A program made the position numbers and the translations under genes. The notes under the pieces were generated by a model. It had not been told where the DNA came from. It saw only the letters and a program-made list of their open reading frames with translations, and did no database searches. From Escherichia phage fDHCT2, in the sequence record OR427838.1: a stretch of 64,000 nt of DNA; one strand, 5' to 3'. Below, piece by piece: positions 12,449-43,733 of this stretch. How positions within the stretch are numbered: the stretch's first letter is position 1; every line of letters begins with the position of its first letter.

Positions 12449-12970
12449 TTAATAACCTCGGTCTTGACGAGCAAAGTTCTCGGCATTTTTCAGATAATAC
12501 AGTTTAAAGATTTCTTCAGCAGTCAGACCAAGACCTTGGAACATATTCAGAACAAAGTGCAGAATATCAATCATTTCGAATTTAATTTCGAGCTGGTCTT
12601 CAGGAGAGAGTTCGTCAATACGACGATTACGGAATTCGGCATGTTGTGCCTTCCACGGCTTCCACACACTGGATGCGGCTTTCTCACCATTACTCATACC
12701 GCCAAGAGAAGTCAGAAGTTCACGGAATTCATCATCAATATAATCTTTCTGGTTGCGAAGCCAATCAACAACTTGACCTGCTGTAGCTAGTTCATCAGGA
12801 TTGGTGTTGAATTCTGATTTTTCAGTAGCCAAACGAACCTGTAATGATTTCTGCATATCAAGCATAACCTGCAGAGGGTCTTTATCTTCGTGAATCAGAG
12901 CATTAAAATAAGCTTCTTCAGCTTTATCAACACCTGCAATAAGTTGTGAGCATTCGTTAAAGTGTGCCAT
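12449..12970 (-). CDS. 56: dCTP pyrophosphatase gp56
   Basis: start at MAHFNEC (12970, RBS AAGGAAAAA); near-collinear with remembered T4 gp56 (...PLQVMLDMQ...DEFRELLTSLG...). Confidence 0.95.
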   Translation of the reverse strand: MAHFNECSQLIAGVDKAEEAYFNALIHEDKDPLQVMLDMQKSLQVRLATEKSEFNTNPDELATAGQVVDWLRNQKDYIDDEFRELLTSLGGMSNGEKAASSVWKPWKAQHAEFRNRRIDELSPEDQLEIKFEMIDILHFVLNMFQGLGLTAEEIFKLYYLKNAENFARQDRGY

Positions 12971-18614: not shown

Positions 18615-19788
18615 GATCGCTCACAAAATTCATATTTTCTAAATCGTTTTCTATATCAGCGGCGCTTTGGGTATTTCCACCTAATTTAACAGCAACGTTC
18701 TTAGAGACACGAGAGTTAATAAGGTCGTTCACCGCATCGTCAACTTCTTTAATAGAATTAATTGCACCGAGCTTATACTTATTCTCGATTGCTTCACGGA
18801 ACGGAGCATGTTTAAACAGCGGTCCCCAGAACTCGACACAATCGGTAGCTTTAGCACGCCATGATTTTTCTTCTTGAACCATTTCACCTGTGGTTTCGTC
18901 AAGGAATGCACGATTATACCAACCAGCTTTAGGTTTCACAACAAAGCCAATATCAGTAGCCATTTCAAGCAATCCACTGAATGGGTCGATACCACCTTCA
19001 AAGTTCACAGTAATTGGGAACGTTGATTTCTCTTTAACAGTACGAGATTTTTCGGCCTTCAGGGTGAAGTCATAACCAGTGAGCTCGGTGCCATCTTTAA
19101 CCTGACGTTTAGAGATAAAGAATACGGTAGAAGCAGAGTACAGAATACCGGTACCGCCACCCATAATCTCTTTAGGATACATTCCACCAATTTCCATAGC
19201 CGTATGGTTAATTGCTACACAAGGGATATCCTTGATGGTCAGATAAGGTGTTACGATACGGAACAGAGATTTCAGTGACTTAGCACGGGTCATATCACCT
19301 ACAACTTTCTCGTTCAAAGCATCTTCGGTTTCTTTCTTAGAAGCGGTGTTACCGATGGAGTCGATAAAGATAATAACCTTTTCACCACGAGTAATTTCTT
19401 CTAATTGGTTGGTCATGTCAACCTTCAGTTGTTCAACTGACTGGATTGGCGTATGAACCACACGTTCCAGGTCAACACCCATTGAACGGAAATAAGATTC
19501 TGAAGCACCGAACTCAGAGTCATAGAACAAGCAAATTGCGTCTGGATATTTCTTCATATATGCTGCAACCATGGTAAGTCCAAACAATGTTTTAAAGTGT
19601 TTAGATGGAGCAGCAAAGATTGTCAAACCTGATTGTAAGCCTGCATTCAACGCACCACCCAATGCAATATTCAGCATAGGGATACGAGTAGGAACTTCGT
19701 CACGACCATTAAACAATTTGGATTTGGTCAGGTCGGCAGTCATTTTAGAAGTAGAAGCTTTAATCAAACGGGATTTTAAATCAGACAT
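18607..19788 (-). CDS. uvsX: UvsX RecA-like recombinase
   Basis: 393 aa; MSDLKSRLIKASTSK... near-identical to remembered T4 UvsX N-terminus. Confidence 0.95.
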   Translation of the reverse strand: MSDLKSRLIKASTSKMTADLTKSKLFNGRDEVPTRIPMLNIALGGALNAGLQSGLTIFAAPSKHFKTLFGLTMVAAYMKKYPDAICLFYDSEFGASESYFRSMGVDLERVVHTPIQSVEQLKVDMTNQLEEITRGEKVIIFIDSIGNTASKKETEDALNEKVVGDMTRAKSLKSLFRIVTPYLTIKDIPCVAINHTAMEIGGMYPKEIMGGGTGILYSASTVFFISKRQVKDGTELTGYDFTLKAEKSRTVKEKSTFPITVNFEGGIDPFSGLLEMATDIGFVVKPKAGWYNRAFLDETTGEMVQEEKSWRAKATDCVEFWGPLFKHAPFREAIENKYKLGAINSIKEVDDAVNDLINSRVSKNVAVKLGGNTQSAADIENDLENMNFVSDHD

Positions 19789-19840
19789 TATATTTTTCCA
19801 TAGGCATCATTATATTTTACTCACGTTTTAAGATAGGGTA

Positions 19841-19870
19841 ATTATATCACTTCACATTTACAGCGTTAAA
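19841..19870 (-). promoter_or_regulatory. possible weak promoter upstream of uvsX
   Basis: minus GTGATATAAT then TACCCTATCTTAA; -35 only CTTTAA-like. Confidence 0.3.
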
Positions 19871-20759
19871 GGACCACGTCCTCATAACTTGGCATTTCGT
19901 GCTCAGAATGGATATGGGCGCCGAAATAAATGAATTCAGCTAGACCAGGATGGAATACTAAACCTGGGTTCTCATGATAAATGATATGAGGTCTTGATTT
20001 CAGAATCTGATAATATTCAACCTTACTTGGTTTGAATTTAATAATCTCTACATCAGGACGATAGTCTTCACGCTTAAATGAATCATTCGGGTCGGTGATA
20101 TAAAGACGAGCACCTTCAGCCGCAGCTTGGTCTACAACTCTTTCGAATTGATAACACTTATCCGAAATACGGAATGGGTGGAAAATACCATCAATTTTAA
20201 TAGGCGCTAGACCTTCAGAGTAACGCTCAATTACTGCCGGATTAATTACCTTTTGGTCTACAAAAATCTTATCAGAGGACGCACCTCGTGACACCAGGAC
20301 GTCTTTCTGACATTGGTTCAAGACTGTAGTATAAATCGAACGTTCAACTGAAGACACGTCGGTATCAATAAACTCATCGATGTAATAACGAGGAACTTCA
20401 GGGTCCATTGTAATGTTAAAGTTGAATTGTACAGTCTGAGCACCATCATAACCAGTGATATCGGTTACTAATCCCGAGCAGTCATAGTATTCGATTAACG
20501 AATCAACGACAAACTCATTTTCGGACCAAAAATGTTTACGGGTCTCATAAGCATTTTCTTTATACCAAAGCGGCACGAAATTCAGTTCAGGAAATAATTC
20601 AATACATTCTTTGATATCGCTCGAATTTCTAGGATAAGCCAGATAATCACCTGGGCAAGCACGGTTTAAATGGAGTTGGAAATTACCGTCCTTAAGGACG
20701 GCATATTCACCTGTTTCGTAACTACGCATACTGAAAATAGGAACGATAAACAAACTCAT
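19866..20759 (-). CDS. hypothetical protein at the T4 bgt position (candidate transferase)
   Basis: 297 aa; no resemblance to remembered T4 beta-glucosyltransferase; function inferred from context only. Confidence 0.6.
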   Translation of the reverse strand: MSLFIVPIFSMRSYETGEYAVLKDGNFQLHLNRACPGDYLAYPRNSSDIKECIELFPELNFVPLWYKENAYETRKHFWSENEFVVDSLIEYYDCSGLVTDITGYDGAQTVQFNFNITMDPEVPRYYIDEFIDTDVSSVERSIYTTVLNQCQKDVLVSRGASSDKIFVDQKVINPAVIERYSEGLAPIKIDGIFHPFRISDKCYQFERVVDQAAAEGARLYITDPNDSFKREDYRPDVEIIKFKPSKVEYYQILKSRPHIIYHENPGLVFHPGLAEFIYFGAHIHSEHEMPSYEDVVL

Positions 20760-21454
20760 TTCAGGAATCCTCGAACGTAGTCAAAATCACGTTCAAATAC
20801 GTGTGCACTAACCATAGTATGGGAATACGTACCCAGACCAACACCACACTGTTCAGCAATAAAGGCCATCAGTTTACCCTGCAGATAGAAATCCAGCTGC
20901 ATAACGATAGCACAGTTCTGTGAACGCATATGAGTATGTGCATACAGACGTCCATCACGAATATAATATGTTACCGAATCGGTACATGGATATTCTAGGG
21001 ATTCGTCAGAATCAAGGAGGGCTTGGTCTTGTTCTTGGAGAATTTGGAACACAACTCGTCTCGAGTTAGGCTTTTCTTTAAGCTCTTTAAGTAGGGCTGG
21101 GAGTTGGGCCACAATTCGAGGTCCATAGAAAGTGTTGAAGTTTGCAGGCAATACGTCACTTTTCGGCTTATCAATGAACTTAGCAACATTAGGGTATTCC
21201 TTAAATGCTTCGGCAGCGTCAGTACCACCAGAAATCATAAATTTCCAAAAGGATTCGGCATATTCATAACTGATACGATTGATACGTGGGTCGGTGAATT
21301 TATAGGTGCTGGCATCCAGTACTTCTATAGAAGCAGAACCAATTTCATAACAACGTCCGATACGAGAATCAACTGCAAACTGTGGAGCTTCCAGGATTTC
21401 TTCGTTCATTTGTTTAAATGCATTTTCAAAACTAACAGCGGTAATGTGTTTCAT
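20756..21454 (-). CDS. 42: pyrimidine hydroxymethylase, thymidylate-synthase fold (gp42-like)
   Basis: 232 aa; ...PCTDSVTYYIRDGRLYAHTHMRSQN... aligns with T4 gp42 ...MCTNTVQYLIRD...NMRSND... Confidence 0.8.
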   Translation of the reverse strand: MKHITAVSFENAFKQMNEEILEAPQFAVDSRIGRCYEIGSASIEVLDASTYKFTDPRINRISYEYAESFWKFMISGGTDAAEAFKEYPNVAKFIDKPKSDVLPANFNTFYGPRIVAQLPALLKELKEKPNSRRVVFQILQEQDQALLDSDESLEYPCTDSVTYYIRDGRLYAHTHMRSQNCAIVMQLDFYLQGKLMAFIAEQCGVGLGTYSHTMVSAHVFERDFDYVRGFLK

Positions 21455-21987
21455 TTATTCACCTTATTTTCAATATATTCGTTCAGACGTTTTAATTCTA
21501 CCATATCAACATTAAGCAAATTATTATGGCCGTCATGATTTAAGATTTTAAACACGTTTTCAAAACATGTTTCGTATTGCTGGATAGTTAGGTTGAACTC
21601 ATCTTTGGTTAATTTAATAAGGTCATCTTCGAAGTCTTCATCTAATGGATTACGGGTTAAAATAACCTCGATAACGTTAAATTCGGATTTAAACCCTTTC
21701 CAATCTTCCAGTTCTACATAAGGGTCCATTTCACCACGAAGGAATCCTGAGTAAACAATATTACTTGGATAACCACGGTCAAGGATGTAAACGAAATTAG
21801 GGTCTAAAAACTTATACAACGTCTCGACTAAAGCCTTATCATTATCAGTTCCTAATGAAATACACTTGCCATTAATCTTTTTAGGAAAATCAATAAGGCG
21901 GTATTTCTTATTGGATAACAGATTTTTAATTAAAGTGGACTTCCCGGAATTATCTGGGCCGTCTATAACAATGATTTTTGGATTCAT
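21451..21987 (-). CDS. P-loop kinase (thymidylate-kinase-like)
   Basis: 178 aa; Walker A IVIDGPDNSGKSTL. Confidence 0.7.
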   Translation of the reverse strand: MNPKIIVIDGPDNSGKSTLIKNLLSNKKYRLIDFPKKINGKCISLGTDNDKALVETLYKFLDPNFVYILDRGYPSNIVYSGFLRGEMDPYVELEDWKGFKSEFNVIEVILTRNPLDEDFEDDLIKLTKDEFNLTIQQYETCFENVFKILNHDGHNNLLNVDMVELKRLNEYIENKVNK

Positions 21988-22382
21988 GGATGATAGGCCT
22001 TATAACTATCAAGAGTTCCTTCACGAACCAATTCTTTAAAGTGGTCTGGACGGATTGCTCGGTCATCGATGATAAAAGTATAACTCGGCTTGTGTGTAAG
22101 CAAATTGTGATATTTCAATCCAATTTTTTCAAGGTTCTTAACCAATGCAGGAACTACTTCAACCAAGATTCGACCTGGGCCACATGAAGTCATGCCACGG
22201 GCAGTGAATAATGTAATCTCGTACCCTTCATCATAAAGCTTATTAATCATGGACACCATTTCGGTGTCCGGTTTAAAGTTCTCATAATCACGGTCATGGT
22301 TCCAAATCGTGATTGTGTTATCGATATCAAAACATAAATGTGGTTTATTTTCTACTCGATGCGACATTAAATTTTCTTCCAT
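21984..22382 (-). CDS. small HAD-superfamily phosphatase
   Basis: 132 aa; motif I FDIDNTIT. Confidence 0.65.
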   Translation of the reverse strand: MEENLMSHRVENKPHLCFDIDNTITIWNHDRDYENFKPDTEMVSMINKLYDEGYEITLFTARGMTSCGPGRILVEVVPALVKNLEKIGLKYHNLLTHKPSYTFIIDDRAIRPDHFKELVREGTLDSYKAYHP

Positions 22383-24040
22383 TGTTTGTGGAGTTCAGTA
22401 GAACCTGTAGGTTTATATTTTACACCAGTTTCCTGGTCAAGCAAAACCCACTTATCAGGACAACGAGTAATAATTTGAGCCGTGATAGGGTCACGAACTT
22501 CATCGACAAATTCACCAGTAATAAGCTTACGCTTACGAGGATGCCGCTTCAGCAGCACACTCAGTTGGTACAAACCGTTATAATAAGCACCCAGAGCTTT
22601 CAGAGGGTTATTCTTAAAGTAACCTGCCAGCGCCATCCAAATAACAGCAATCCAGAGCTTGTGCTTAAATGTGCACATAGGAATATCGTCTAAAGGCATA
22701 ACCTTTTCAATATCAACGAATACACGAGTTCCATTACGAGTTAATCCACCCCATAGAGGGTCTGAGTTAAATTTGTCATAGCCATCGATAGAATAAAGCA
22801 CCTTAGCTTCATCATAAATCGCAGGGCCTTTAGAACTATTACCGAAATAACCACGTGGGTCGATGATTTTAATATCACCTTCGTCCGACAGCATAATATT
22901 ACTGTAGTGCGGGTCACCATGAATAAGTTGGTACGGTTCTTTATGTTCAGACAGAATTTCTAATGCATGGCGGAGAAGTTTTTCAGGGTCGCCTACTTTG
23001 AAATCGTTGACATGGGTAATGCCCTGTGGAGCAAAGCCTTCAATCAATCCGGCAATAGAAGCATTACGAATAAGGACCTTGTCCAATACTTCTTTCTTAA
23101 CATCGGAATACCATTGTTCATCGGACGGATTATCAATAGTTCCACCAAATGAACGTAATGCACTAATGACCTTATAAACCATGAGGACTTTAGTTTCTTT
23201 GGACATAAACCGGTAGGCATCTGCCATGGTCCGACCAAAGATACGTTCCATTTTAATGAATTCGCCTGGAGAAAAGTCTACAATGCTAGGAACGAATTCA
23301 GAATCAATAGAATTATACCAATTGATTTCTTTAGATTGAATTTCTTTACCTAAATCGTTAGTTGGTACTTTAATAGCCAGATTCTCAGTGAACTCTAATT
23401 TATTAAATTCACGGTTAATTTCAGAATCTTCATGGGCCTTAGCCAGTTTCAATTTGTCACCGACATCAACCACAAAGTCCAGCTTACGTTCAGTCAAATG
23501 GACCATCGAATCCAGGTTGTCTGCAAGGTCTTCGCCATAATTAGAACGGTCGAAACCTGTCCAATTAGCCACCTGATACAAACCAACCACACCACCGCCA
23601 GTACCAATTTCACGCAAGTACGGTTCTTCAAATGTAAAACGACAGTCGGTCCCATAGGTATAACAGTAGTCGTTATCCCACTCAACTTTATGACCTTCAG
23701 GAATAATATCACACCAGTTAAACAAGACATTATGCCCAATGATATCTTCAGCAATGCAATCGATAGCATGAGCTGAACCATTAGCAACATCAACGTTACG
23801 AATAGTGAATTTAGGCTTATCACCAGTAATCATGTTAATGGATTTGATATAGCCTTTAACGAGGTCGTTAAATTTGCTGTGAATAACCAGAATAATTTCA
23901 TCTGATTGGTTACTATACAAATCATACAAATGCTTTAATACCGTATGTTGTTTGTAGTTAACCAATACCTTCGGGATTTCGTTAGTAATTGGATACAACC
24001 GTGAGCCAAGACCCGCGCCTAAAATAACAACCTTTTTCAT
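22367..24040 (-). CDS. bifunctional sugar-1-phosphate nucleotidyltransferase / kinase
   Basis: start at MKKVVILGAGLGSRLYPIT (RBS GAGGAA); C-terminal LIHGDPHYSNIML...IIDPRGY kinase motifs. Confidence 0.8.
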   Translation of the reverse strand: MKKVVILGAGLGSRLYPITNEIPKVLVNYKQHTVLKHLYDLYSNQSDEIILVIHSKFNDLVKGYIKSINMITGDKPKFTIRNVDVANGSAHAIDCIAEDIIGHNVLFNWCDIIPEGHKVEWDNDYCYTYGTDCRFTFEEPYLREIGTGGGVVGLYQVANWTGFDRSNYGEDLADNLDSMVHLTERKLDFVVDVGDKLKLAKAHEDSEINREFNKLEFTENLAIKVPTNDLGKEIQSKEINWYNSIDSEFVPSIVDFSPGEFIKMERIFGRTMADAYRFMSKETKVLMVYKVISALRSFGGTIDNPSDEQWYSDVKKEVLDKVLIRNASIAGLIEGFAPQGITHVNDFKVGDPEKLLRHALEILSEHKEPYQLIHGDPHYSNIMLSDEGDIKIIDPRGYFGNSSKGPAIYDEAKVLYSIDGYDKFNSDPLWGGLTRNGTRVFVDIEKVMPLDDIPMCTFKHKLWIAVIWMALAGYFKNNPLKALGAYYNGLYQLSVLLKRHPRKRKLITGEFVDEVRDPITAQIITRCPDKWVLLDQETGVKYKPTGSTELHKQWKKI

Positions 24041-24100
24041 TATCTGTTCCTCAAGTGAATGTAGGTACATTATACACTATTTTTAATAAATTGGTATTGC

Positions 24101-24601
24101 TTAAATCTTATCTTTACCGATTTCAATACACTGTTCTATTGCCGCCGGTACTTTGGTCTTGAGCTTATCGATTTGTTTCTTATAATCACGAGCTTTACCG
24201 AAGCTCTCGGTTTCGAGCATTTCGTAATAACGAGCCTCGTGGATGGAAATCTGTAGATTGATATGGTTTACGCACATCGCATACAGTTTCTGCTTTTTGT
24301 ACAAATCATCTTGACGCTTCATTTCTGCCTGGTGTTTGGCTAGTACCGCTTCACGCTTAGACTCTTGTTCACGTTGGAATTCGATTTCCCTTTGAGCATA
24401 TTTTGCACAGTTATTACCGCATTGATTATTAGCTCGGGTATACACAAGTCCGGAACCAGCACGGAATTTCATTTCGCCATCGAATTGTTTCTGTTCAGCT
24501 GCGATACGAGCTTTACCAACTTCATCAGCCGAAACTGCATCGCCATATTGGACCGCGCAACCTGATAGGAGCATACTCATTGCGATAATTAACTTTTTCA
24601 T
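24101..24601 (-). CDS. lipoprotein
   Basis: 166 aa; MKKLIIAMSMLLSGC lipobox. Confidence 0.6.
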   Translation of the reverse strand: MKKLIIAMSMLLSGCAVQYGDAVSADEVGKARIAAEQKQFDGEMKFRAGSGLVYTRANNQCGNNCAKYAQREIEFQREQESKREAVLAKHQAEMKRQDDLYKKQKLYAMCVNHINLQISIHEARYYEMLETESFGKARDYKKQIDKLKTKVPAAIEQCIEIGKDKI

Positions 24602-24608
24602 AATATCC

Positions 24609-24746
24609 TCAATTAAAACAGTTATACTTAATTTGTGCTATAAGAATAATCCATCCAATGATGAGTGTCGGAATCATTGGTGGAATTGCCACTGCCCAAT
24701 AAACGGTAAAGGCAGCCATTATAAGAAATAAAATAATTATCTTCAT
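24609..24746 (-). CDS. small membrane peptide (45 aa, hand-called)
   Basis: MKIIILFLIMAAFTVYWAVAIPPMIPTLIIGWIILIAQ...; ATG overlaps imm stop. Confidence 0.4.
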   Translation of the reverse strand: MKIIILFLIMAAFTVYWAVAIPPMIPTLIIGWIILIAQIKYNCFN

Positions 24747-24979
24747 TGTTTAACGATAATGATTTGTGCGTTTGATTTACGTTCAGCGACGATAGCCCAG
24801 ATTAAAGCCACTACCCAACCAATCATCGTCCACCCTAACAGGAGATTAAGGAAGAAAATTCCTACATTACTACGAGTGCCTCGCAGAAGGGCTAAAATCC
24901 ATGGTAAAAAGTAACCGATGAACATAATAACCAGAGAACCAAATCCTAAAACACCAGCACTAACGATTAAAGCTTCCAT
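24743..24979 (-). CDS. imm: superinfection immunity protein Imm
   Basis: 78 aa, two TM helices, ...LLLGWTMIGWVVALIWA...; T4 position before gene 43. Confidence 0.7.
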   Translation of the reverse strand: MEALIVSAGVLGFGSLVIMFIGYFLPWILALLRGTRSNVGIFFLNLLLGWTMIGWVVALIWAIVAERKSNAQIIIVKQ

Positions 24980-25009
24980 TGTAATTTCCTCATGTAGTTG
25001 ATAGGAAGG

Positions 25010-25039
25010 ATACTACCACGTTCCTTGTGGTATGTAAAC
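25010..25039 (-). promoter_or_regulatory. T4-type early promoter (imm)
   Basis: minus GTTTAC (25034-25039), 18 nt, TAGTAT, CTATCAAC. Confidence 0.6.
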
Positions 25040-25041
25040 AC

Positions 25042-27753
25042 TTAAAAGTCGAACATATCAAATAATGTTGCTTTTTTCTCGTAGTCGATTTTAGCAGACT
25101 CAGTAAAACCAGTCAGAGGCTTGATAAAGGTCTTTTGGAACAGTACGTTGTAGTCCATCCAACGGAGGACTTGGTCACGAATCTGAATCGGAAGTTCAAT
25201 ACCTGACGGCCACGCCATACAAGCTTCACCAAAAGGGTTGCCTTCTTTAAGCGGCAGCACATATACCTTTTCACCATCAACGATACGAGGCATGGTCAAA
25301 TCACCTGCAGAAGCACGCATGTAAGCTAAGCAACCTTTGATGTGATACGGACATTTAGAACCAGGGAAACCGCCTTCATTATATTTCTCGATGTTGTTAG
25401 CACTGGATACTGCAGCAATGCTTACATAGTTTAGTTCGTTAAATTCCTTATTAAACTGTTTGAAATACTCTTGCAAAGAGGCCTCGCCTTCTTGAAGCAT
25501 ACGACGGATACATTCTTTCAGTGCTTTCTGAACTGCTTTAGGTGTACTTGATTTCTGGGTTTCGAGGCCCATGATTTTCAAGTGTGGTTCGGCATAACGA
25601 GTACCTTCCATGTCCCAAACGTTCAGTGCATAACGTTTCTTGCCTGTCCAGAATCCACCAAGACCTTTAGAACCAAGTGGAGGACCAGCGATAGCTTCTC
25701 GGTCCATGAACATCAAGTGCTGTTTATTGTTCATGTATTCGCACATCTCACGGAAGCCTGCATCAATAGCCGGTTCCATACGTTCACGTGCAAATTTATC
25801 TAAGAAATCAACCCAGTGGTTAGTATCACGGAATTTATCTTCGCCTACTTTATTGATGATTGCGTCAGCCTTAACATAAATGGAGTCAGTATCACCATAG
25901 AGCACGAACTTCTGGTTTTCAGTCTTGCACACACCATTCAGATATTCGTTAACCTTACGTTCAATCCATTGGAGGGCCATTTGACCAAACAATGTGATTG
26001 CAGTCGCGTTCCTGAGGTCATAGTAACGGAACCATACGTTACCAAGTGCACCATAAAGGGAGTTGATAAGCAACTTACGGTTAATCTGAGCAGTCATACC
26101 TGCGACTTCAGTACGTTCGGCTTTGAACAACATTTCTTTTAAAGAAGATGCTGACAATTTTTTAATCTGAGCTTTGATTTCGTCAGAGAAGTCGAAACGA
26201 TAATCGATATCCAGTGGGCTATCAACAGACGGATTAGGATTTTCTAATGCTTCCTTAATTAACTCACCATTACGTTGAGCTGCAAGCATATAACCTTTAT
26301 GTTCTTTACGCTGTAAGAACACCTTCGTGATTTCTGTAGGAATCACGCCATCACGGTCTTTATAGTACATCATGCCGTTAGGAGAGCAACTGTAGGTGTC
26401 GCTAGGACGCGGAGCAGTTCCGGCAATATATTCATGTATCGGTGCGTTAGCGAATGTCCCTGCGATGGTCTCTGGGCTTATATTCACTTGTCGAATGATA
26501 CTCGGGTACAGAGATGTAAGGTCGAAACTCATTACATATTTGTACGCGTTAGGAATAGGTTCCTTAACGAAAGCACCTGGATAAGGTTGAACCGCATGCG
26601 ATTTGGCCTGAGGAATAACTTTACCCTGTTCTTTAAGGCTATTAAAGATAATAGCGTCCCAAGTCTTAATTGGACTGAACACCGACTGAATCTGCATCTT
26701 GGCATAGTAACCCATGTCCAGACTAAGAAGAATGAACTGGCGTTTCATATCAATCTGCACAACACGATATACGTCGATAATGTTATAGGAAATATATCGT
26801 TGGTGGTTCGTCTCACGTAACTTGGAGATAGGACCATCATATTTCAACTTACCTACTTTCAATTCATATTCAGAAACATAATCCAGAGAATAAGAAGGCT
26901 GGTTGGTAAAGCTGAATTTTTTATAAAGGTCGATATAATCCAGAACAGAGATACCGAACAGTGTAATAATTTCACGAACACCGTACATATTCTCGATAAC
27001 TTTAACACGAGTCTTACGATGCGGGCTTAATCGCTTAGCAGTGTTCTCACCAAACAGATTTTTCAGACGGTTATAAACGTATGGCACGTCAAATGATTCA
27101 ACGTTCCATCCAGTCAAAATCACAGGAGTTTTCTGTTGCCAGAAATTCAGATACTCAAGCATCATTTCTTCTTCAGAATTAAACGGAAGATAAACGATTT
27201 TGTCAATGATTTCTTGTGGAACTTCGTCACCACCTTCGTCTTGGAGTTTCTCAGCGATTTTAATCGACCACTCTTCGACCGTACCATAAGGTGAAACTAA
27301 AAGGTCAAATACATAGAATTTATCATCAATCGAGTCGTAGTGAGTAATGGCATCGATAGGATGTTTAGCCTGAGCAGGTTCAGGGAATCCATCAGGGGAT
27401 GTTACCTCGATGTCGAAGTTAGCAATACGAATCTTGGAAGAATCATACTTGATTTCTTTACGATAGGTATCAGACAAATAGGCTAATTTATAGTCGTCCA
27501 TACCAAGGGCTTCGAGACCCATATCGTCCATGCGCTTCATCCACTGAGAAGCATCGCGCATTGAATTGAATTCTTTCTTAACACAGCCCTTACCGTAGAT
27601 GTCAATATATTTTACGGCTTGCTCTGGGTTAGCATGCATAAACATTGTAGGCTTGTATGGAACTTCACGACTACGTTCGTTACCATTTTTATCGATGTAA
27701 CGTTCGAGAATATTATCACCGATTTGTTCGACTGTCAAATAGAATTCTTGCAT
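25042..27753 (-). CDS. 43: DNA polymerase gp43
   Basis: start at MQEFYLTVEQ (27753, RBS AAGGAAA); collinear with remembered T4 gp43 to ...LFDMFDF. Confidence 0.97.
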   Translation of the reverse strand: MQEFYLTVEQIGDNILERYIDKNGNERSREVPYKPTMFMHANPEQAVKYIDIYGKGCVKKEFNSMRDASQWMKRMDDMGLEALGMDDYKLAYLSDTYRKEIKYDSSKIRIANFDIEVTSPDGFPEPAQAKHPIDAITHYDSIDDKFYVFDLLVSPYGTVEEWSIKIAEKLQDEGGDEVPQEIIDKIVYLPFNSEEEMMLEYLNFWQQKTPVILTGWNVESFDVPYVYNRLKNLFGENTAKRLSPHRKTRVKVIENMYGVREIITLFGISVLDYIDLYKKFSFTNQPSYSLDYVSEYELKVGKLKYDGPISKLRETNHQRYISYNIIDVYRVVQIDMKRQFILLSLDMGYYAKMQIQSVFSPIKTWDAIIFNSLKEQGKVIPQAKSHAVQPYPGAFVKEPIPNAYKYVMSFDLTSLYPSIIRQVNISPETIAGTFANAPIHEYIAGTAPRPSDTYSCSPNGMMYYKDRDGVIPTEITKVFLQRKEHKGYMLAAQRNGELIKEALENPNPSVDSPLDIDYRFDFSDEIKAQIKKLSASSLKEMLFKAERTEVAGMTAQINRKLLINSLYGALGNVWFRYYDLRNATAITLFGQMALQWIERKVNEYLNGVCKTENQKFVLYGDTDSIYVKADAIINKVGEDKFRDTNHWVDFLDKFARERMEPAIDAGFREMCEYMNNKQHLMFMDREAIAGPPLGSKGLGGFWTGKKRYALNVWDMEGTRYAEPHLKIMGLETQKSSTPKAVQKALKECIRRMLQEGEASLQEYFKQFNKEFNELNYVSIAAVSSANNIEKYNEGGFPGSKCPYHIKGCLAYMRASAGDLTMPRIVDGEKVYVLPLKEGNPFGEACMAWPSGIELPIQIRDQVLRWMDYNVLFQKTFIKPLTGFTESAKIDYEKKATLFDMFDF

Positions 27754-33294: not shown

Positions 33295-33532
33295 CCTTGA
33301 TGCATGATTCAGCCATATGGATTAATGTTTCTGGAGTATCATCTACCATTACATTAAAGCTAAATTCCACAGCCCAATCGGTAGCAACATAAACTTTAAT
33401 AAGCTCGTTGGTATCACGAGTGCTCACCGCTTCAAACCAGAACTTAATTGTATTCGGTTCGTTATCATCATCTAGAACCAGGCAGTCATGCTCAAGCTCA
33501 AGACCCGATTTTTTGAATTCATCTAATGTCAT
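33269..33532 (-). CDS. hypothetical small protein
   Basis: 87-aa ORF. Confidence 0.5.
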   Translation of the reverse strand: MTLDEFKKSGLELEHDCLVLDDDNEPNTIKFWFEAVSTRDTNELIKVYVATDWAVEFSFNVMVDDTPETLIHMAESCIKDAYNDENV

Positions 33533-34551
33533 CGCGTAACCTCATTATAAAGTTGTGCAGCCATGGTTTTGAGGGCCTTAACGTCATCTTCGGTATGTCC
33601 ATCTGGTAAAGCATCGATATAATCATACATCATATCCAAGAGGGACTTAACTTCATCTTCCTCTTCAGAATCATCGATATCAACGCTGTTATCTACCTTA
33701 GACACAATACGTAAAGAGTGAACAACCTTTTCAAGCTCTGATTCGAACTTAGTAAGACCGTCATCGATTTTATCGACTATAACACGAACTGCGATATTTG
33801 TAAAATCTTTGTAATCGATAGTCGCGTTAGGATAATGAATCTTACGATGCCAACAGGTTTCATTAATGATGAAATCCATTTTATGAGTTTCGGTATCGAA
33901 AATCCAGAAACCACGAGGGTCGTTCTCATCACCTGCAGTCAGGGTCCATGGAGTACCAATGTACTTAACGTTTGCTGCATCAGAAATAGTGTGGAAGTGG
34001 CCTGACCAAACTTGCTTATACTTTTTAAGGAAATCAGGTTCTAAACCATGGGATTTCATTCCTTTATAGAAATAGAAACCATTTAATTCCCAATGCCCAA
34101 TACAGAAATCTGCTGTGGTATTTTTGATATGGTCCATGATATCGGTCGTGTTTTCTTCACACATCCATGGAATCAAATCAATTTCGGTGCCATCAAAGTT
34201 AACCGTAGTAGGTTTTTCAATAACCTTGATATGGTCATATTTACCCAGAACTTCAGAAGCAGCATTAGGAGTCAAGGTATTTTTGTAGTGCATATCATGA
34301 TTACCAACAACGGTATACATGGTAATGCCATTAGCTTTAAGCAAATCAGAGATTTCGCGAGCGAATTCCATGCACTTGTGGGTAATTGCTTTACGAACAT
34401 CAAAGATATCACCGTATTGAATCCATACAGTAATGCCATTTGCTTTAGAATAATCAATAGCGTCTTGGATACCTTGACGTTGGATATTTTGTACCCACAC
34501 ATCATCAGCCTTAACTCCAAGGTGCCAGTCACCGGTGTTTAATATTTTCAT
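33529..34551 (-). CDS. 47: recombination nuclease subunit gp47 (Mre11/SbcD-like)
   Basis: start at MKILNTGDWHLG (34551); phosphoesterase motifs; collinear with remembered T4 gp47. Confidence 0.95.
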   Translation of the reverse strand: MKILNTGDWHLGVKADDVWVQNIQRQGIQDAIDYSKANGITVWIQYGDIFDVRKAITHKCMEFAREISDLLKANGITMYTVVGNHDMHYKNTLTPNAASEVLGKYDHIKVIEKPTTVNFDGTEIDLIPWMCEENTTDIMDHIKNTTADFCIGHWELNGFYFYKGMKSHGLEPDFLKKYKQVWSGHFHTISDAANVKYIGTPWTLTAGDENDPRGFWIFDTETHKMDFIINETCWHRKIHYPNATIDYKDFTNIAVRVIVDKIDDGLTKFESELEKVVHSLRIVSKVDNSVDIDDSEEEDEVKSLLDMMYDYIDALPDGHTEDDVKALKTMAAQLYNEVTR

Positions 34552-34691
34552 AAGCCAAGCGCCGTTATCGAAATACAAAATAAAATTATTGAAATGAACC
34601 CGTCAGAAGTGGAAAAGAATCCTATCCAACAAGCTCTTGTGAATGTGTAGAATGCCATGAATAACACGACATATCCTAAAAATAATTCCAT
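34548..34691 (-). CDS. small membrane peptide (47 aa, hand-called), coupled to gene 47
   Basis: MELFLGYVVLFMAFYTFTRACWIGFFSTSDGFISIILFCISITALGL; RBS GAGGAGAACAT; stop overlaps gp47 ATG. Confidence 0.45.
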   Translation of the reverse strand: MELFLGYVVLFMAFYTFTRACWIGFFSTSDGFISIILFCISITALGL

Positions 34692-34734
34692 ATGTTCTCC
34701 TCAGTTGGTTCATTTTATCATCCGAATATAAAGC

Positions 34735-34757
34735 AAAAAAGGAGCCTAAGCTCCTTT
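34735..34757 (-). terminator. intrinsic terminator
   Basis: minus AAAGGAGC-TTAG-GCTCCTTTTTTGC. Confidence 0.65.
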
Positions 34758-34977
34758 ACCAATTAATACACCGTACAGAGGTTCGTGATTAGACCTGAAC
34801 TTGATAGGCTTATAGGTAATAGTACCTTCATTTTCCGCTTTAATACGAGCAGCTTCAAATTTAAGTATCATCTCATTTTTGTCAGATTTAATCTTATCAA
34901 AATCCGTCGAATTCGTCATTCATAAAACCTCTTAAACTTTTTCGTATTCGTCATTCATTAGCCTGCAGTCCATGTTA

Positions 34978-35178
34978 TCATCGCTGCCACCATTTCTTAA
35001 GTTGATGAGAATCTACCCAAACCTTGGCTACAGGTTCAATCTGAAAAATTCCATCAGAATACTGACCAACCATTTTGTATTCGGTTTCGGACTGCTTAAT
35101 ACAGATATTACCGTATGAGCGAAGTCTGAAAGCGGCTCCAACAAGAAGCCGTTTAAAGGGTTTATTTACTAAGGCCAT
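34978..35178 (-). CDS. hypothetical small protein
   Basis: 66-aa ORF. Confidence 0.45.
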   Translation of the reverse strand: MALVNKPFKRLLVGAAFRLRSYGNICIKQSETEYKMVGQYSDGIFQIEPVAKVWVDSHQLKKWWQR

Positions 35179-35473
35179 TGACGATTTCCCAAATTTGTTT
35201 GCGGGTAGATTCCCACATCAATTGAACAAGTTCATCAGTAACAGGTTGACGGTAAATACCGCGTAATTTAATTAAAGCGTACTTATATGCTTCAAAGTTG
35301 TTTTCAAGTACAGCGCCTTGGGCATGGAGATTTAAACGACGGATTTCACGAGCATTCTTCTTAAGAATCTTAGCCGCTTGCGAATTAGCTTCTTTAATAT
35401 TGTGCTCTTCTAAACGTTGCTGGGCTTCTTCAATTTGCTCATCAGTCAATTGAGAAATGTCATGGCTTTGCAT
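35162..35473 (-). CDS. hypothetical protein
   Basis: 103-aa ORF. Confidence 0.5.
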   Translation of the reverse strand: MQSHDISQLTDEQIEEAQQRLEEHNIKEANSQAAKILKKNAREIRRLNLHAQGAVLENNFEAYKYALIKLRGIYRQPVTDELVQLMWESTRKQIWEIVNGLSK

Positions 35474-35474
35474 A

Positions 35475-35741
35475 TTAATCCTTTGGAGTCAATTCGATAG
35501 TGAAGTAGAAATTAGCGTTCTCAACATGATAACGATAATCTACGTTATTGTCAGGAGAAGTGAATTCAATATTCCTGACGTTAAGTGGGTCAATATCAAT
35601 AGGAAGGCCTTTAACATCCCGTAATATCAATTTAATAAAATAAGGGAGTGCTTCGAAGTCTTCCATTCCATCTAAAAGTGGAGTGATATTAATCTGATGT
35701 TCCATATAAAAAATCCAGTTCGCCAACTTTAGGTTCGGCAC
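35475..35741 (-). CDS. hypothetical protein
   Basis: 88-aa ORF. Confidence 0.5.
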
Positions 35742-36246
35742 TCTTATCAGACCCTGGTGCTTTAGTTAAAGAGGTTTCATACTGTGTCATTTTATCGTAG
35801 ATATCTTGGATAAAGGTTTCATCTGCAATACCTACCATATCGTCATCATTACTGTCATAGACATTATGGACGAAGTAGCTGTATTTCTTTGCCATTTCTT
35901 TACGTTCTTTCTTGATACGCTGAACAAAGGCATTAAAACAAGCCATAGTGATATATGCATGTGGGTTGTCGTATTTTGTTTCGTCGAAGTTGTGAAGACC
36001 TTTAATAGAAGCTTCGATTCCATCAGCAATCATTTCTTGCTTCCAGGATTGGGTATACCCGGAGAAGTTGAAACGCTTAGAAAGGCCTTCAGCAATGAGC
36101 ATAATAGCCAAGCCGATAACATCGTTCTGACGAACTATTTTATTAGGATCGGTATTTTCTCGGAGCTCTGTTTTCCACTGGGTAATGGCTTTCAGAAGCT
36201 CCTTATTATTTACATAGTTATTTTTAGTCAGTTTAATTTCGGTCAT
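35689..36246 (-). CDS. 55: late sigma factor gp55
   Basis: 185 aa; ...YVNNKELL...KTEL...[56 protein letters not shown]... near-identical to remembered T4 gp55. Confidence 0.95.
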
Positions 36247-42839: not shown

Positions 42840-43733
42840 TTATTTTAGAGCTAATACTGCCGCGCGAAGCTTGTCACGCTGGATTTCCATATTCTTGATG
42901 CGAATCAATACGTCTTGAATACTCTTTTTCTCATCTTCGATCTGACCATTTAAACGGTGGATTGATTCCTGGAGGTGGTCCTCATGATACTTCTCGATAG
43001 GTTTCATCGTAGGGTTAGTAACAACCAAAGAATTATCAGGTTTAATTTTCCAATGATACGGTTCTGAATTGAATGGACTCGGCACAGCCGTGGTTTTGAA
43101 TTTGTCATAAGTAGCATACTGGCCTACAGGCCCATATGACGCGGTGGAGATTCGACGTTCCATTTGTGGGTCCTTTTGTTGTGGTTGATAAGGCGCATAA
43201 GACAAAAGATATTCACGAGTTAGTTTAACATTAAAATACACTGCATCAGGCCGCCCGGAACAATCAGCATATTCATCTGTTGTAACCTTATATGATTCTA
43301 CTGCCTTAATACGAGTCATTGCCTCTCTGAATAAGGTTTCGAATGCTTCACGAAGGGCCTTATTGCCTTTTGAGGTGGGACGGAAACGAACTTGAATACC
43401 GTCAGGCAGAATATTAATGACCAGGTTACGAGCCGTAAAATTAATATTTTTGATATTAACAGGAACCGTAGAAATACGTCCTGCAGTAGCCAAGAGGTCT
43501 TTAATATTAGCTCGTAATGTCGCGCCAAATAAATGAGCTGGGCTACGGCAATAATCGTTCAAAGAACTAATATAAGTTCCTTTACGGCCTACGCCGTAAG
43601 TGTAGTTACCATTACGAATCTGACCAAAGTCTGCTAACCGGTCAATAGCGATACGACGAGTAGTGTCATGGTCGTATATAGAGTATTCTTTACGCGTTTT
43701 AATGTTCATATTAAAGTCCAAATAATTTTTCAT
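42840..43733 (-). CDS. hypothetical protein
   Basis: 297-aa ORF. Confidence 0.55.
   Translation of the reverse strand: MKNYLDFNMNIKTRKEYSIYDHDTTRRIAIDRLADFGQIRNGNYTYGVGRKGTYISSLNDYCRSPAHLFGATLRANIKDLLATAGRISTVPVNIKNINFTARNLVINILPDGIQVRFRPTSKGNKALREAFETLFREAMTRIKAVESYKVTTDEYADCSGRPDAVYFNVKLTREYLLSYAPYQPQQKDPQMERRISTASYGPVGQYATYDKFKTTAVPSPFNSEPYHWKIKPDNSLVVTNPTMKPIEKYHEDHLQESIHRLNGQIEDEKKSIQDVLIRIKNMEIQRDKLRAAVLALK

Follow-up and report, generated by a model that had tools for sequence, protein, structure and literature searches.

Which DNA modification is encoded between uvsX and imm in Escherichia phage fDHCT2 (sequence record OR427838.1), and from which base and which sugar would it be built? 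The window analysed here is a stretch of 64,000 nucleotides (nt) of this genome, and the locus in question, at positions 19866-24040, consists of five consecutive open reading frames (ORFs) on the minus strand, which code for proteins of 297, 232, 178, 132 and 557 amino acids (aa). An earlier note on this DNA had drawn attention to these genes, and all of the motifs it quoted (PCTDS, RSQN, MQLD, GPDNSGKST, FDIDNT, GAGLGSRLYPIT, HGDPHYSN and IDPRGY) are found in the five translations. It had further proposed that the set makes a nucleoside diphosphate (NDP) sugar, transfers it to hydroxymethylated pyrimidine and resembles the arabinosyl-hmC type reported for some T-even relatives. Activation of a sugar, its transfer to a modified cytosine and kinship with the arabinosyl modification of phage RB69 are supported by the orthology of all five proteins to those of the RB69 and HY126 clusters. 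The observation was thus real, yet partly misread, since its central claim of hydroxymethylation is wrong: the five genes very likely encode the phage pathway for arabinosyl-5-hydroxycytosine (ara-5hoC) DNA hypermodification in its Dhakavirus form. They are arranged as follows:

19866..20759, minus strand: GT-B glycosyltransferase (GT1), 297 aa, orthologue of arabinosyltransferase 1
20756..21454, minus strand: predicted 5-hydroxydeoxycytidine monophosphate (5-hydroxy-dCMP, 5hodCMP) synthase of the ThyA superfamily (cytosine C5 hydroxylase), 232 aa, assigned by orthology and the D169N exchange
21451..21987, minus strand: TMK-like P-loop nucleotide kinase, 178 aa, orthologue of RB69 gp45 and DLP3 gp78
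21984..22382, minus strand: AfhF-like small HAD phosphatase, 132 aa, with the motif FDIDNT; predicted arabinofuranose-1,5-bisphosphate 5-phosphatase
22367..24040, minus strand: AfhE-like nucleotidyltransferase-kinase fusion, 557 aa, with the Pfam domains NTP_transferase and APH

Stop and start codons overlap at each junction, as ATGA at the first three and by 16 nt at the fourth, and the five genes therefore form one translationally coupled block. Their GC content (0.34-0.42) is similar to that of the neighbouring genes and unremarkable. All five ORFs have PHROG matches (E about 1e-40 to 1e-269), and the strong homologues found for each of them indicate that the arrangement is not a chance pattern. 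In megablast, at least 80% of the region is covered in 51 phage records at 90-99% identity, the best matches being EcWhh-1, JS10, JS98, CLB_P2 and other members of Dhakavirus, the genus to which the window belongs; DNA identity of the region to JS98, JS10 and CLB_P2 is 96%. The cluster is collinear with that of JS98 and aligns to it without gaps at 96.3% identity, and the JS98 annotation already likens the five genes to RB69 orf047c, 048c, 045c, 051c and 052c. The Dhakaviruses are also among the groups of Straboviridae predicted by synteny to make 5-hydroxydeoxycytidine (5hodC) (PMC13326640).

The base would be produced by the 232-aa protein, a member of the thymidylate synthase superfamily (Pfam Thymidylat_synt, E 4e-14). 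Its matches in the PDB are 9iqu, 9iqc and 9ir2 (E 3e-126) and, far more weakly, T4 gp42 (1b5e, E 6e-6); its identity amounts to 79% with RB69 gp48 and 79.7% with the HY126 enzyme, as against 25% with T4 gp42. The protein was aligned by MAFFT with E. coli ThyA, T4 gp42 and RB69 gp48 (13 of 13 residues of the E. coli ThyA sequence agree with the numbering in PMC13326640). In E. coli ThyA numbering it has E143, C146, N169 and D177, and it equals RB69 gp48 at all 13 active-site positions around the substrate C5. Position 169 is Asp in T4 gp42 and ThyA and Asn in the 232-aa protein, whose RSQN motif corresponds to this D169N signature. The latter is diagnostic of flavin- and O2-dependent 5-hydroxy-dCMP synthases (PMC13326640). 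RB69 gp48 and DLP3 gp80 produce 5-hydroxy-dCMP (Lee et al. NAR 2026, PMC13326640), and RB69 gp48 together with nine further D169N homologues yields 5hodC in vivo; the oxygen is derived from 18O2, the enzyme binds flavin mononucleotide (FMN), and nuclear magnetic resonance (NMR) of the RB69 nucleosides places arabinofuranose on C5 via an ether oxygen (PMC13326640). The 79-80% identity to the RB69 and HY126 enzymes, combined with D169N, thus points to 5-hydroxycytosine with an ether-linked sugar as the base, rather than to hydroxymethylcytosine.

The earlier note had viewed this protein as a gp42-like hydroxymethylase and the product as arabinosyl-hydroxymethylcytosine (ara-hmC), such that a gp42-type dCMP hydroxymethylase would supply the base and the rest of the cluster would add a pentose to it. 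Membership of the thymidylate synthase superfamily is compatible with this explanation, as are the Asp at ThyA N177 and the acidic residue at L143, both of which are gp42-like; moreover, several database records label the orthologue a dCMP hydroxymethylase, and the RB69 base was first named ara-hmC (Thomas et al. 2018, PMC6024577). The hydroxymethyl assignment in RB69 was, however, erroneous (PMC13390438): the base has been revised to arabinosyl-5-hydroxycytosine, which has an ether link and no methylene group (PMC13326640, PMC13390438), and the RB69 enzyme makes 5hodCMP with FMN and oxygen from O2, so that the explanation is already largely refuted for the orthologues. For the protein in the window, the low identity to gp42 and the Asn169 where gp42 and ThyA keep Asp led to the rejection of a gp42-type hydroxymethylase, and we consider the ara-hmC route extremely improbable.

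The sugar of the predicted ara-5hoC would be activated by the products of the last two genes of the list. The 132-aa protein carries the DxDxT motif in the form FDIDNT, matches 9iqw (E 2.8e-54) and 1xpj (E 9e-12) in the PDB, and is 62% identical to RB69 gp51 and 63.2% to the HY126 orthologue; an NCBIfam match to the capsule-biosynthesis phosphatase TIGR01689 (E 6e-15) lies below the cut-off. Its RefSeq and PHROG label, 'phosphoheptose isomerase', is a misnomer. Translation could start at ATG 22382 (132 aa, with the 16-nt overlap with the upstream gene) or at ATG 22367 (127 aa). The second ATG has one base in common with the upstream TAA stop (TAATG), and the HAD protein as annotated in RB69 and HY126 (128 aa) matches this start.

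The 557-aa fusion aligns end to end with the 562-aa HY126 protein XAN60479 at 42.5% identity, is 41-44% identical to RB69 gp52/53, and bears the above GAGLGSRLYPIT and HGDPHYSN motifs along with IDPRG. Its N-terminus matches Pfam NTP_transferase (33.9 bits, cut-off 21.2) and its C-terminus Pfam APH (25.3 bits, cut-off 23.2), at residues 13-110 and 356-427, respectively, of a 567-aa reading. The latter begins at an alternative start, ATG 24070, which overlaps a TATAAT hexamer, whereas ATG 24040 has the Shine-Dalgarno sequence GAGGAA 7 nt upstream and is therefore the likelier start; the 557-aa form is annotated in both CLB_P2 and JS98. The domain content suggests an arabinose-5-phosphate 1-kinase joined to a UDP (uridine diphosphate)-arabinofuranose pyrophosphorylase. 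According to PMC13326640, in which He et al. 2026 is summarised, HY126 AfhE converts arabinose-5-phosphate to the 1,5-bisphosphate, AfhF takes off one phosphate, considered by the authors of the paper to be the 5-phosphate by analogy, and AfhE finally yields UDP-arabinofuranose. The order proposed in the earlier note, in which a free sugar is phosphorylated and then activated, should thus be replaced by that of the homologues, which starts from arabinose-5-phosphate and proceeds by 1-kinase and 5-phosphatase to UDP-arabinofuranose.

The transfer of the sugar is ascribed to the 297-aa protein, which has no meaningful sequence match in Pfam, NCBIfam or the PDB and was identified by structure prediction only. 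Its AlphaFold2 (AF2) model has a predicted local distance difference test (pLDDT) score of 95.2; the leading structure matches are GT-B/GT4 glycosyltransferases, and nearly all among the 60 matches listed are GT-B. The suggestion that this protein is the transferase is thus supported as to the fold of the model. Its orthologues are RB69 gp46:47, DLP3 gp79 and HY126 XAN60474, with identities of 63-70% to RB69 gp47/gp46, which are a single gene split through a sequencing error (PMC13326640), and of 66.7% to the HY126 protein. The GT-B transferase gene adjoins the hydroxylase gene. Its predicted role is to attach the first arabinofuranose to the 5-OH group of 5-hydroxycytosine, both the activity and the acceptor being putative.

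A second transferase was sought in several ways. The window and positions 1678-170523 of JS98 were searched by tblastn with RB69 gp3 (the second transferase), gp50 and gp55 (the arabinose-5-phosphate isomerase), none of which gave a match, and with a-gt and b-gt of T4, which gave no significant one. Among ten more ORFs of the window, mostly unassigned, none showed a glycosyltransferase domain. The interval examined for an a-gt-sized gene is bounded by two genes:

33532-34551: gp47
35692-36246: gp55 of the window

As the earlier note had stated, there is no a-gt-sized gene in this interval (34551 to 35692, about 1.1 kb), which holds small ORFs only; the corresponding interval of JS98 keeps a-gt.2 to a-gt.5, without a-gt. 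The additional arabinosyltransferases for the second and third sugars, RB69 gp3 and DLP3 gp76/77, of which gp3 was the query here, define poly-arabinosyl subtypes and not the family. With a single encoded transferase, mono-arabinosyl-5hoC is the predicted product, in contrast to the di- or tri-arabinosylated bases of RB69 and DLP3; PMC13326640 makes the equivalent proposal for phage Thanatos, which likewise has one transferase. Gene absences of this kind, like the orthology, active-site signature, fold and domain content described above, were observed directly.

A sixth gene, located outside the cluster, would contribute to the pathway:

12452..12970, minus strand: gp56 dCTPase/dUTPase (Pfam dUTPase_2), 95% identical to RB69 gp56 and 90% to JS98 gp56

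The activities in the following scheme are taken from papers on homologues. The gp56 enzyme would turn dCTP into dCMP, thereby removing dCTP and supplying the substrate of the hydroxylase. The 232-aa ThyA-like enzyme would then convert dCMP, with flavin and O2, to 5-hydroxy-dCMP without one-carbon transfer. A gp1-type deoxynucleoside monophosphate (dNMP) kinase, perhaps with a contribution of the TMK-like kinase of the cluster, would lead to the triphosphate, and the phage polymerase would put 5-hydroxy-dCTP in place of dC. As the cluster has no isomerase of its own, D-arabinose-5-phosphate would be drawn from the host pathway for 3-deoxy-D-manno-octulosonic acid (Kdo), for which E. coli constitutively makes arabinose-5-phosphate via KdsD and GutQ. 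The C-terminal kinase domain of the fusion would phosphorylate this compound at C1, the HAD phosphatase would strip the 5-phosphate, the N-terminal nucleotidyltransferase domain would make UDP-arabinofuranose, and the GT-B enzyme would transfer one arabinofuranose to the 5-hydroxyl. We infer, rather than observe, the host supply, the single arabinose per base, the part played by the TMK-like kinase and the step at which the sugar is added. By analogy with the protection reported for RB69, DLP3 and Bas46, the modification is expected to shield the phage DNA from restriction and CRISPR nucleases.

Several points weigh against this pathway. No chemical analysis of DNA from a Dhakavirus came up in the literature searched, and the identities of base and sugar are predicted from orthology. 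An arabinose-5-phosphate isomerase (RB69 gp55, DLP3 gp83) is carried by RB69, HY126 and DLP3 alike and is missing here. The fusion (~42%) and the kinase (~38%) have diverged from the characterised or RB69 proteins, so that the sugar specificity could differ, and a second, very divergent transferase beyond the reach of tblastn is possible elsewhere in the genome. Purified DLP3 gp79 was inactive on 5hoC-DNA with UDP-arabinofuranose (UDP-Araf) or UDP-arabinopyranose (UDP-Arap) (PMC13326640), and the orthologue in phage Thanatos, TH1_063, which is 50.8% identical to the 297-aa protein, was reported as a UDP-xylose pyrophosphorylase (PMC12838424).

The last two findings would both be accounted for if the 297-aa protein were an NDP-pentose-forming enzyme, the true transferase being located elsewhere or unrecognised, as TH1_063 formed UDP-xylose from uridine triphosphate (UTP) and xylose-1-phosphate in vitro (PMC12838424). 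Yet Leloir glycosyltransferases, T4 a-gt among them, adopt the GT-B fold, and sugar-1-phosphate nucleotidyltransferases do not; a canonical nucleotidyltransferase domain is already present in the cluster, and neither the larger unassigned ORFs examined in the window nor a tblastn search of JS98 revealed another glycosyltransferase. Such a role of the 297-aa protein therefore appears highly improbable.

The divergence of the fusion from its HY126 counterpart, the lack of an RB69 gp55 homologue in the window and in JS98, and the 'deoxypentose' and UDP-xylose-forming activity described for Thanatos (PMC12838424) would also fit a 5-hydroxycytosine base that bears a sugar other than D-arabinofuranose, such as xylose, ribose or a deoxypentose. 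Both the phosphatase and transferase 1, however, share 62-67% identity with their counterparts in arabinosylating phages. An isomerase would be dispensable in a host that makes arabinose-5-phosphate by itself, and is probably an accessory gene. The route is thus not as self-contained as the earlier note had put it: the genes for activation and transfer are in place, but the RB69-type isomerase is not. Thanatos itself is treated as mono-arabinosylated in PMC13326640. A different sugar seems decidedly unlikely, and D-arabinofuranose is retained in the predicted pathway.

The 178-aa kinase carries P-loop and DR motifs and matches PHROG 761 'thymidylate kinase' (E 7e-40), while every Pfam and NCBIfam kinase match lies under the curated cut-offs; it is 38% identical to RB69 gp45 and 37.6% to the HY126 counterpart. 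A separate gp1-type dNMP kinase converts 5hodCMP to the diphosphate (PMC13326640), and a kinase of the T4 gp1 type is encoded elsewhere in the genome. Three contigs of very distant phages also have the GT1 gene next to one for a TMK-like kinase. Positions 4426-7576 of L009 (383 kb) code for a flavodoxin-like protein, a ThyA homologue (RSQN...QLD), GT1 and a TMK-like kinase. Positions 2110-7682 of L010 (356 kb) hold AfhE-like and HAD-like genes, a ThyA homologue (RSNN), GT1 and a TMK-like kinase, and positions 5496-9220 of L011 (26 kb) a weak TMK-like gene, GT1, a U32 protein and a GT47-like protein, with no ThyA homologue within the 13 kb read. GT1 and the TMK-like kinase are thus an invariant pair across distant contigs, even where sugar-activation genes or a ThyA homologue are not nearby. 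In L009 the gene immediately upstream of that for the D169N ThyA homologue codes for the Flavodoxin_2-like protein, which may serve the hydroxylase as a flavin reductase.

The constancy of this pair suggests another order of events, in which the GT-B enzyme adds the first sugar to free 5-hydroxy-dCMP, the TMK-like kinase is dedicated to the bulky glycosyl-5-hydroxy-dCMP, and the polymerase incorporates an arabinosylated dCTP analogue. This order is unlikely in our estimate. It is left open because a gp1-type kinase already handles 5hodCMP and because transferase 1 showed no activity towards 5hoC-DNA in vitro; according to their authors, the published data do not separate attachment at the nucleotide level from attachment at the DNA level (PMC13326640).

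The proposed ara-5hoC pathway can be compared with three known systems. In the Mosigvirus phages RB69, HY126 and Bas46/47 (Afh/Aat genes) the cluster occupies the same slot between uvsX and gp43, and RB69 and HY126 code for orthologues of the D169N synthase, GT-B transferase 1, TMK-like kinase, HAD phosphatase and fusion. The cluster in the window differs from that of RB69 in lacking the isomerase (gp55), the second transferase (gp3) and the U32-family gene (gp50), in the identities of just 38-44% of its kinase and fusion to the RB69 and HY126 proteins, and in its predicted mono- rather than di-arabinosylation. The gene order also differs: uvsX, kinase, GT1, hydroxylase, orf49, U32, HAD, fusion, orf54, isomerase and gp43 in RB69, as compared to uvsX, GT1, hydroxylase, kinase, HAD, fusion, a 166-aa ORF, an orf54-like ORF, imm and gp43 in the window. 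The TMK-like gene is thus located between hydroxylase and phosphatase in the window and beside uvsX in RB69, and imm lies between cluster and gp43 as in T4, unlike RB69.

The Shewanella phage Thanatos likewise has one GT1-type gene, a 561-aa nucleotidyltransferase-kinase fusion and a 237-aa ThyA homologue, and its sugar is O-linked directly to cytosine (PMC12838424). It infects another host and represents a distant lineage of Straboviridae; its authors consider the GT1 orthologue a pyrophosphorylase and the sugar a deoxypentose (PMC12838424), whereas PMC13326640 describes Thanatos as mono-arabinosylated with a single transferase. The glucosyl-hmC system of T4 is similar in its plan: a dCTPase is followed by a member of the ThyA superfamily that acts on dCMP, and then by kinases, incorporation by the polymerase and transfer of the sugar. 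It also resides in the same genomic neighbourhood. The uvsX-imm interval of T4, which the earlier note had described as holding only b-gt and gene 42, does contain both, but also the homing endonuclease gene segA. In T4 the C5 substituent is CH2OH, whereas OH is predicted in the window phage; gp42 keeps Asp169, and homologues of a-gt and b-gt were not found by tblastn in the window. The sugar donor would be made by the phage in the window system, while T4 uses ready-made UDP-glucose of the host.

The distribution of the genes follows phage groups. In the phage database, homologues of RB69 gp3 have either at least 95% identity (Mosigvirus) or less than 60% (Acinetobacter and Tegunavirus phages), with nothing in between, and the Escherichia records with a gp3 homologue are the same 137 (Mosigvirus) that have one of RB69 gp55. 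A GT1 homologue is present in 176 Escherichia records; at an identity of at least 95%, GT1 is found in 49 records from all hosts, which are the Dhakaviruses.

The U32 gene missing from the cluster, RB69 gp50 (26492-27661 in the RB69 locus L002), matches Pfam Peptidase_U32 (42 bits, cut-off 22.4), and a homologue 51% identical to it lies beside GT1 in L011 (7049-8125). In NCBIfam it has a weak UbiU match only (E 9e-4), too weak for placement in a U32 subfamily. The U32 family includes the O2-independent hydroxylases RlhA (5-hydroxycytidine in rRNA), TrhP and UbiU/V, and gp50 could provide an anaerobic route to 5-hydroxycytosine. Annotated as a 'peptidase', it was named 'sugar or heterocycle reductase' in PMC13326640. 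As the five-gene cluster has no U32 gene, its base synthesis may depend entirely on O2, which would raise the question of how Dhakavirus DNA is modified in the anoxic gut.

As a discovery the cluster adds little. Attention was drawn to the gene module of RB69 and its relatives in 2018 (PMC6024577), a survey of 2021 covered its distribution in Tevenvirinae (PMC8056088), and the chemistry and enzymes of ara-5hoC were solved in 2025-2026, with the Dhakaviruses already named as predicted carriers; the system is thus already known. Its reduced form in the window, with one transferase and without an isomerase or a U32-like gene, represents a natural minimal system, and can therefore show which genes suffice for modification. 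JS98, CLB_P2 and similar Dhakaviruses are candidates for phage therapy, and it depends on the chemistry of their DNA which defences (restriction, CRISPR, type IV and glycosylase) they escape or trigger. The labels of the five genes in GenBank and RefSeq are inconsistent, and comprise 'hypothetical', 'thymidylate synthase', 'dCMP hydroxymethylase', 'deoxycytidylate 5-hydroxymethyltransferase' and 'thymidylate kinase', as well as 'phosphoheptose isomerase', 'capsule biosynthesis protein' and 'capsid and scaffold protein'. The public Dhakavirus labels would be better read as a 5-hydroxycytosine arabinosylation pathway.

The surroundings of the block comprise the following features:

18625-19788: uvsX, flanking the block
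24073..24078, minus strand: TATAAT hexamer, a possible -10 element, ~30 nt before the start of the block's first gene
24746-24979: imm, the other flank
25045-27753: gp43 DNA polymerase, beyond imm

The TATAAT hexamer is a doubtful promoter element: it has no acceptable -35 hexamer, and a scan for consensus promoters did not return this site. A promoter and terminator scan of 19500-25200 gave sites no more numerous than in shuffled sequence. A promoter-like site directed towards uvsX lies at 19869-19841 (TTAACG, 17 nt, TATAAT with TG upstream). The intergenic gap between uvsX and GT1 (19789-19865) measures 77 bp in the window versus ~200 bp in JS98, and this difference in length accounts for the two-piece megablast alignment; CLB_P2 has an annotated ORF of 43 aa within the gap. 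Between the block and imm are ORFs of 166 aa and 45 aa. The former (24101-24601), which corresponds to JS98 orf43 and PHROG 1754 (unknown function), has a lipoprotein-like N-terminus (MKKLIIAMSMLLSGC) and no counterpart in the RB69 cluster. Finally, a second 297-aa ORF of the window, at 42840-43733 (JS98 orf86), is unrelated to the glycosyltransferase despite its equal length, and is instead a full-length DUF7235 protein (Pfam E 2e-117).

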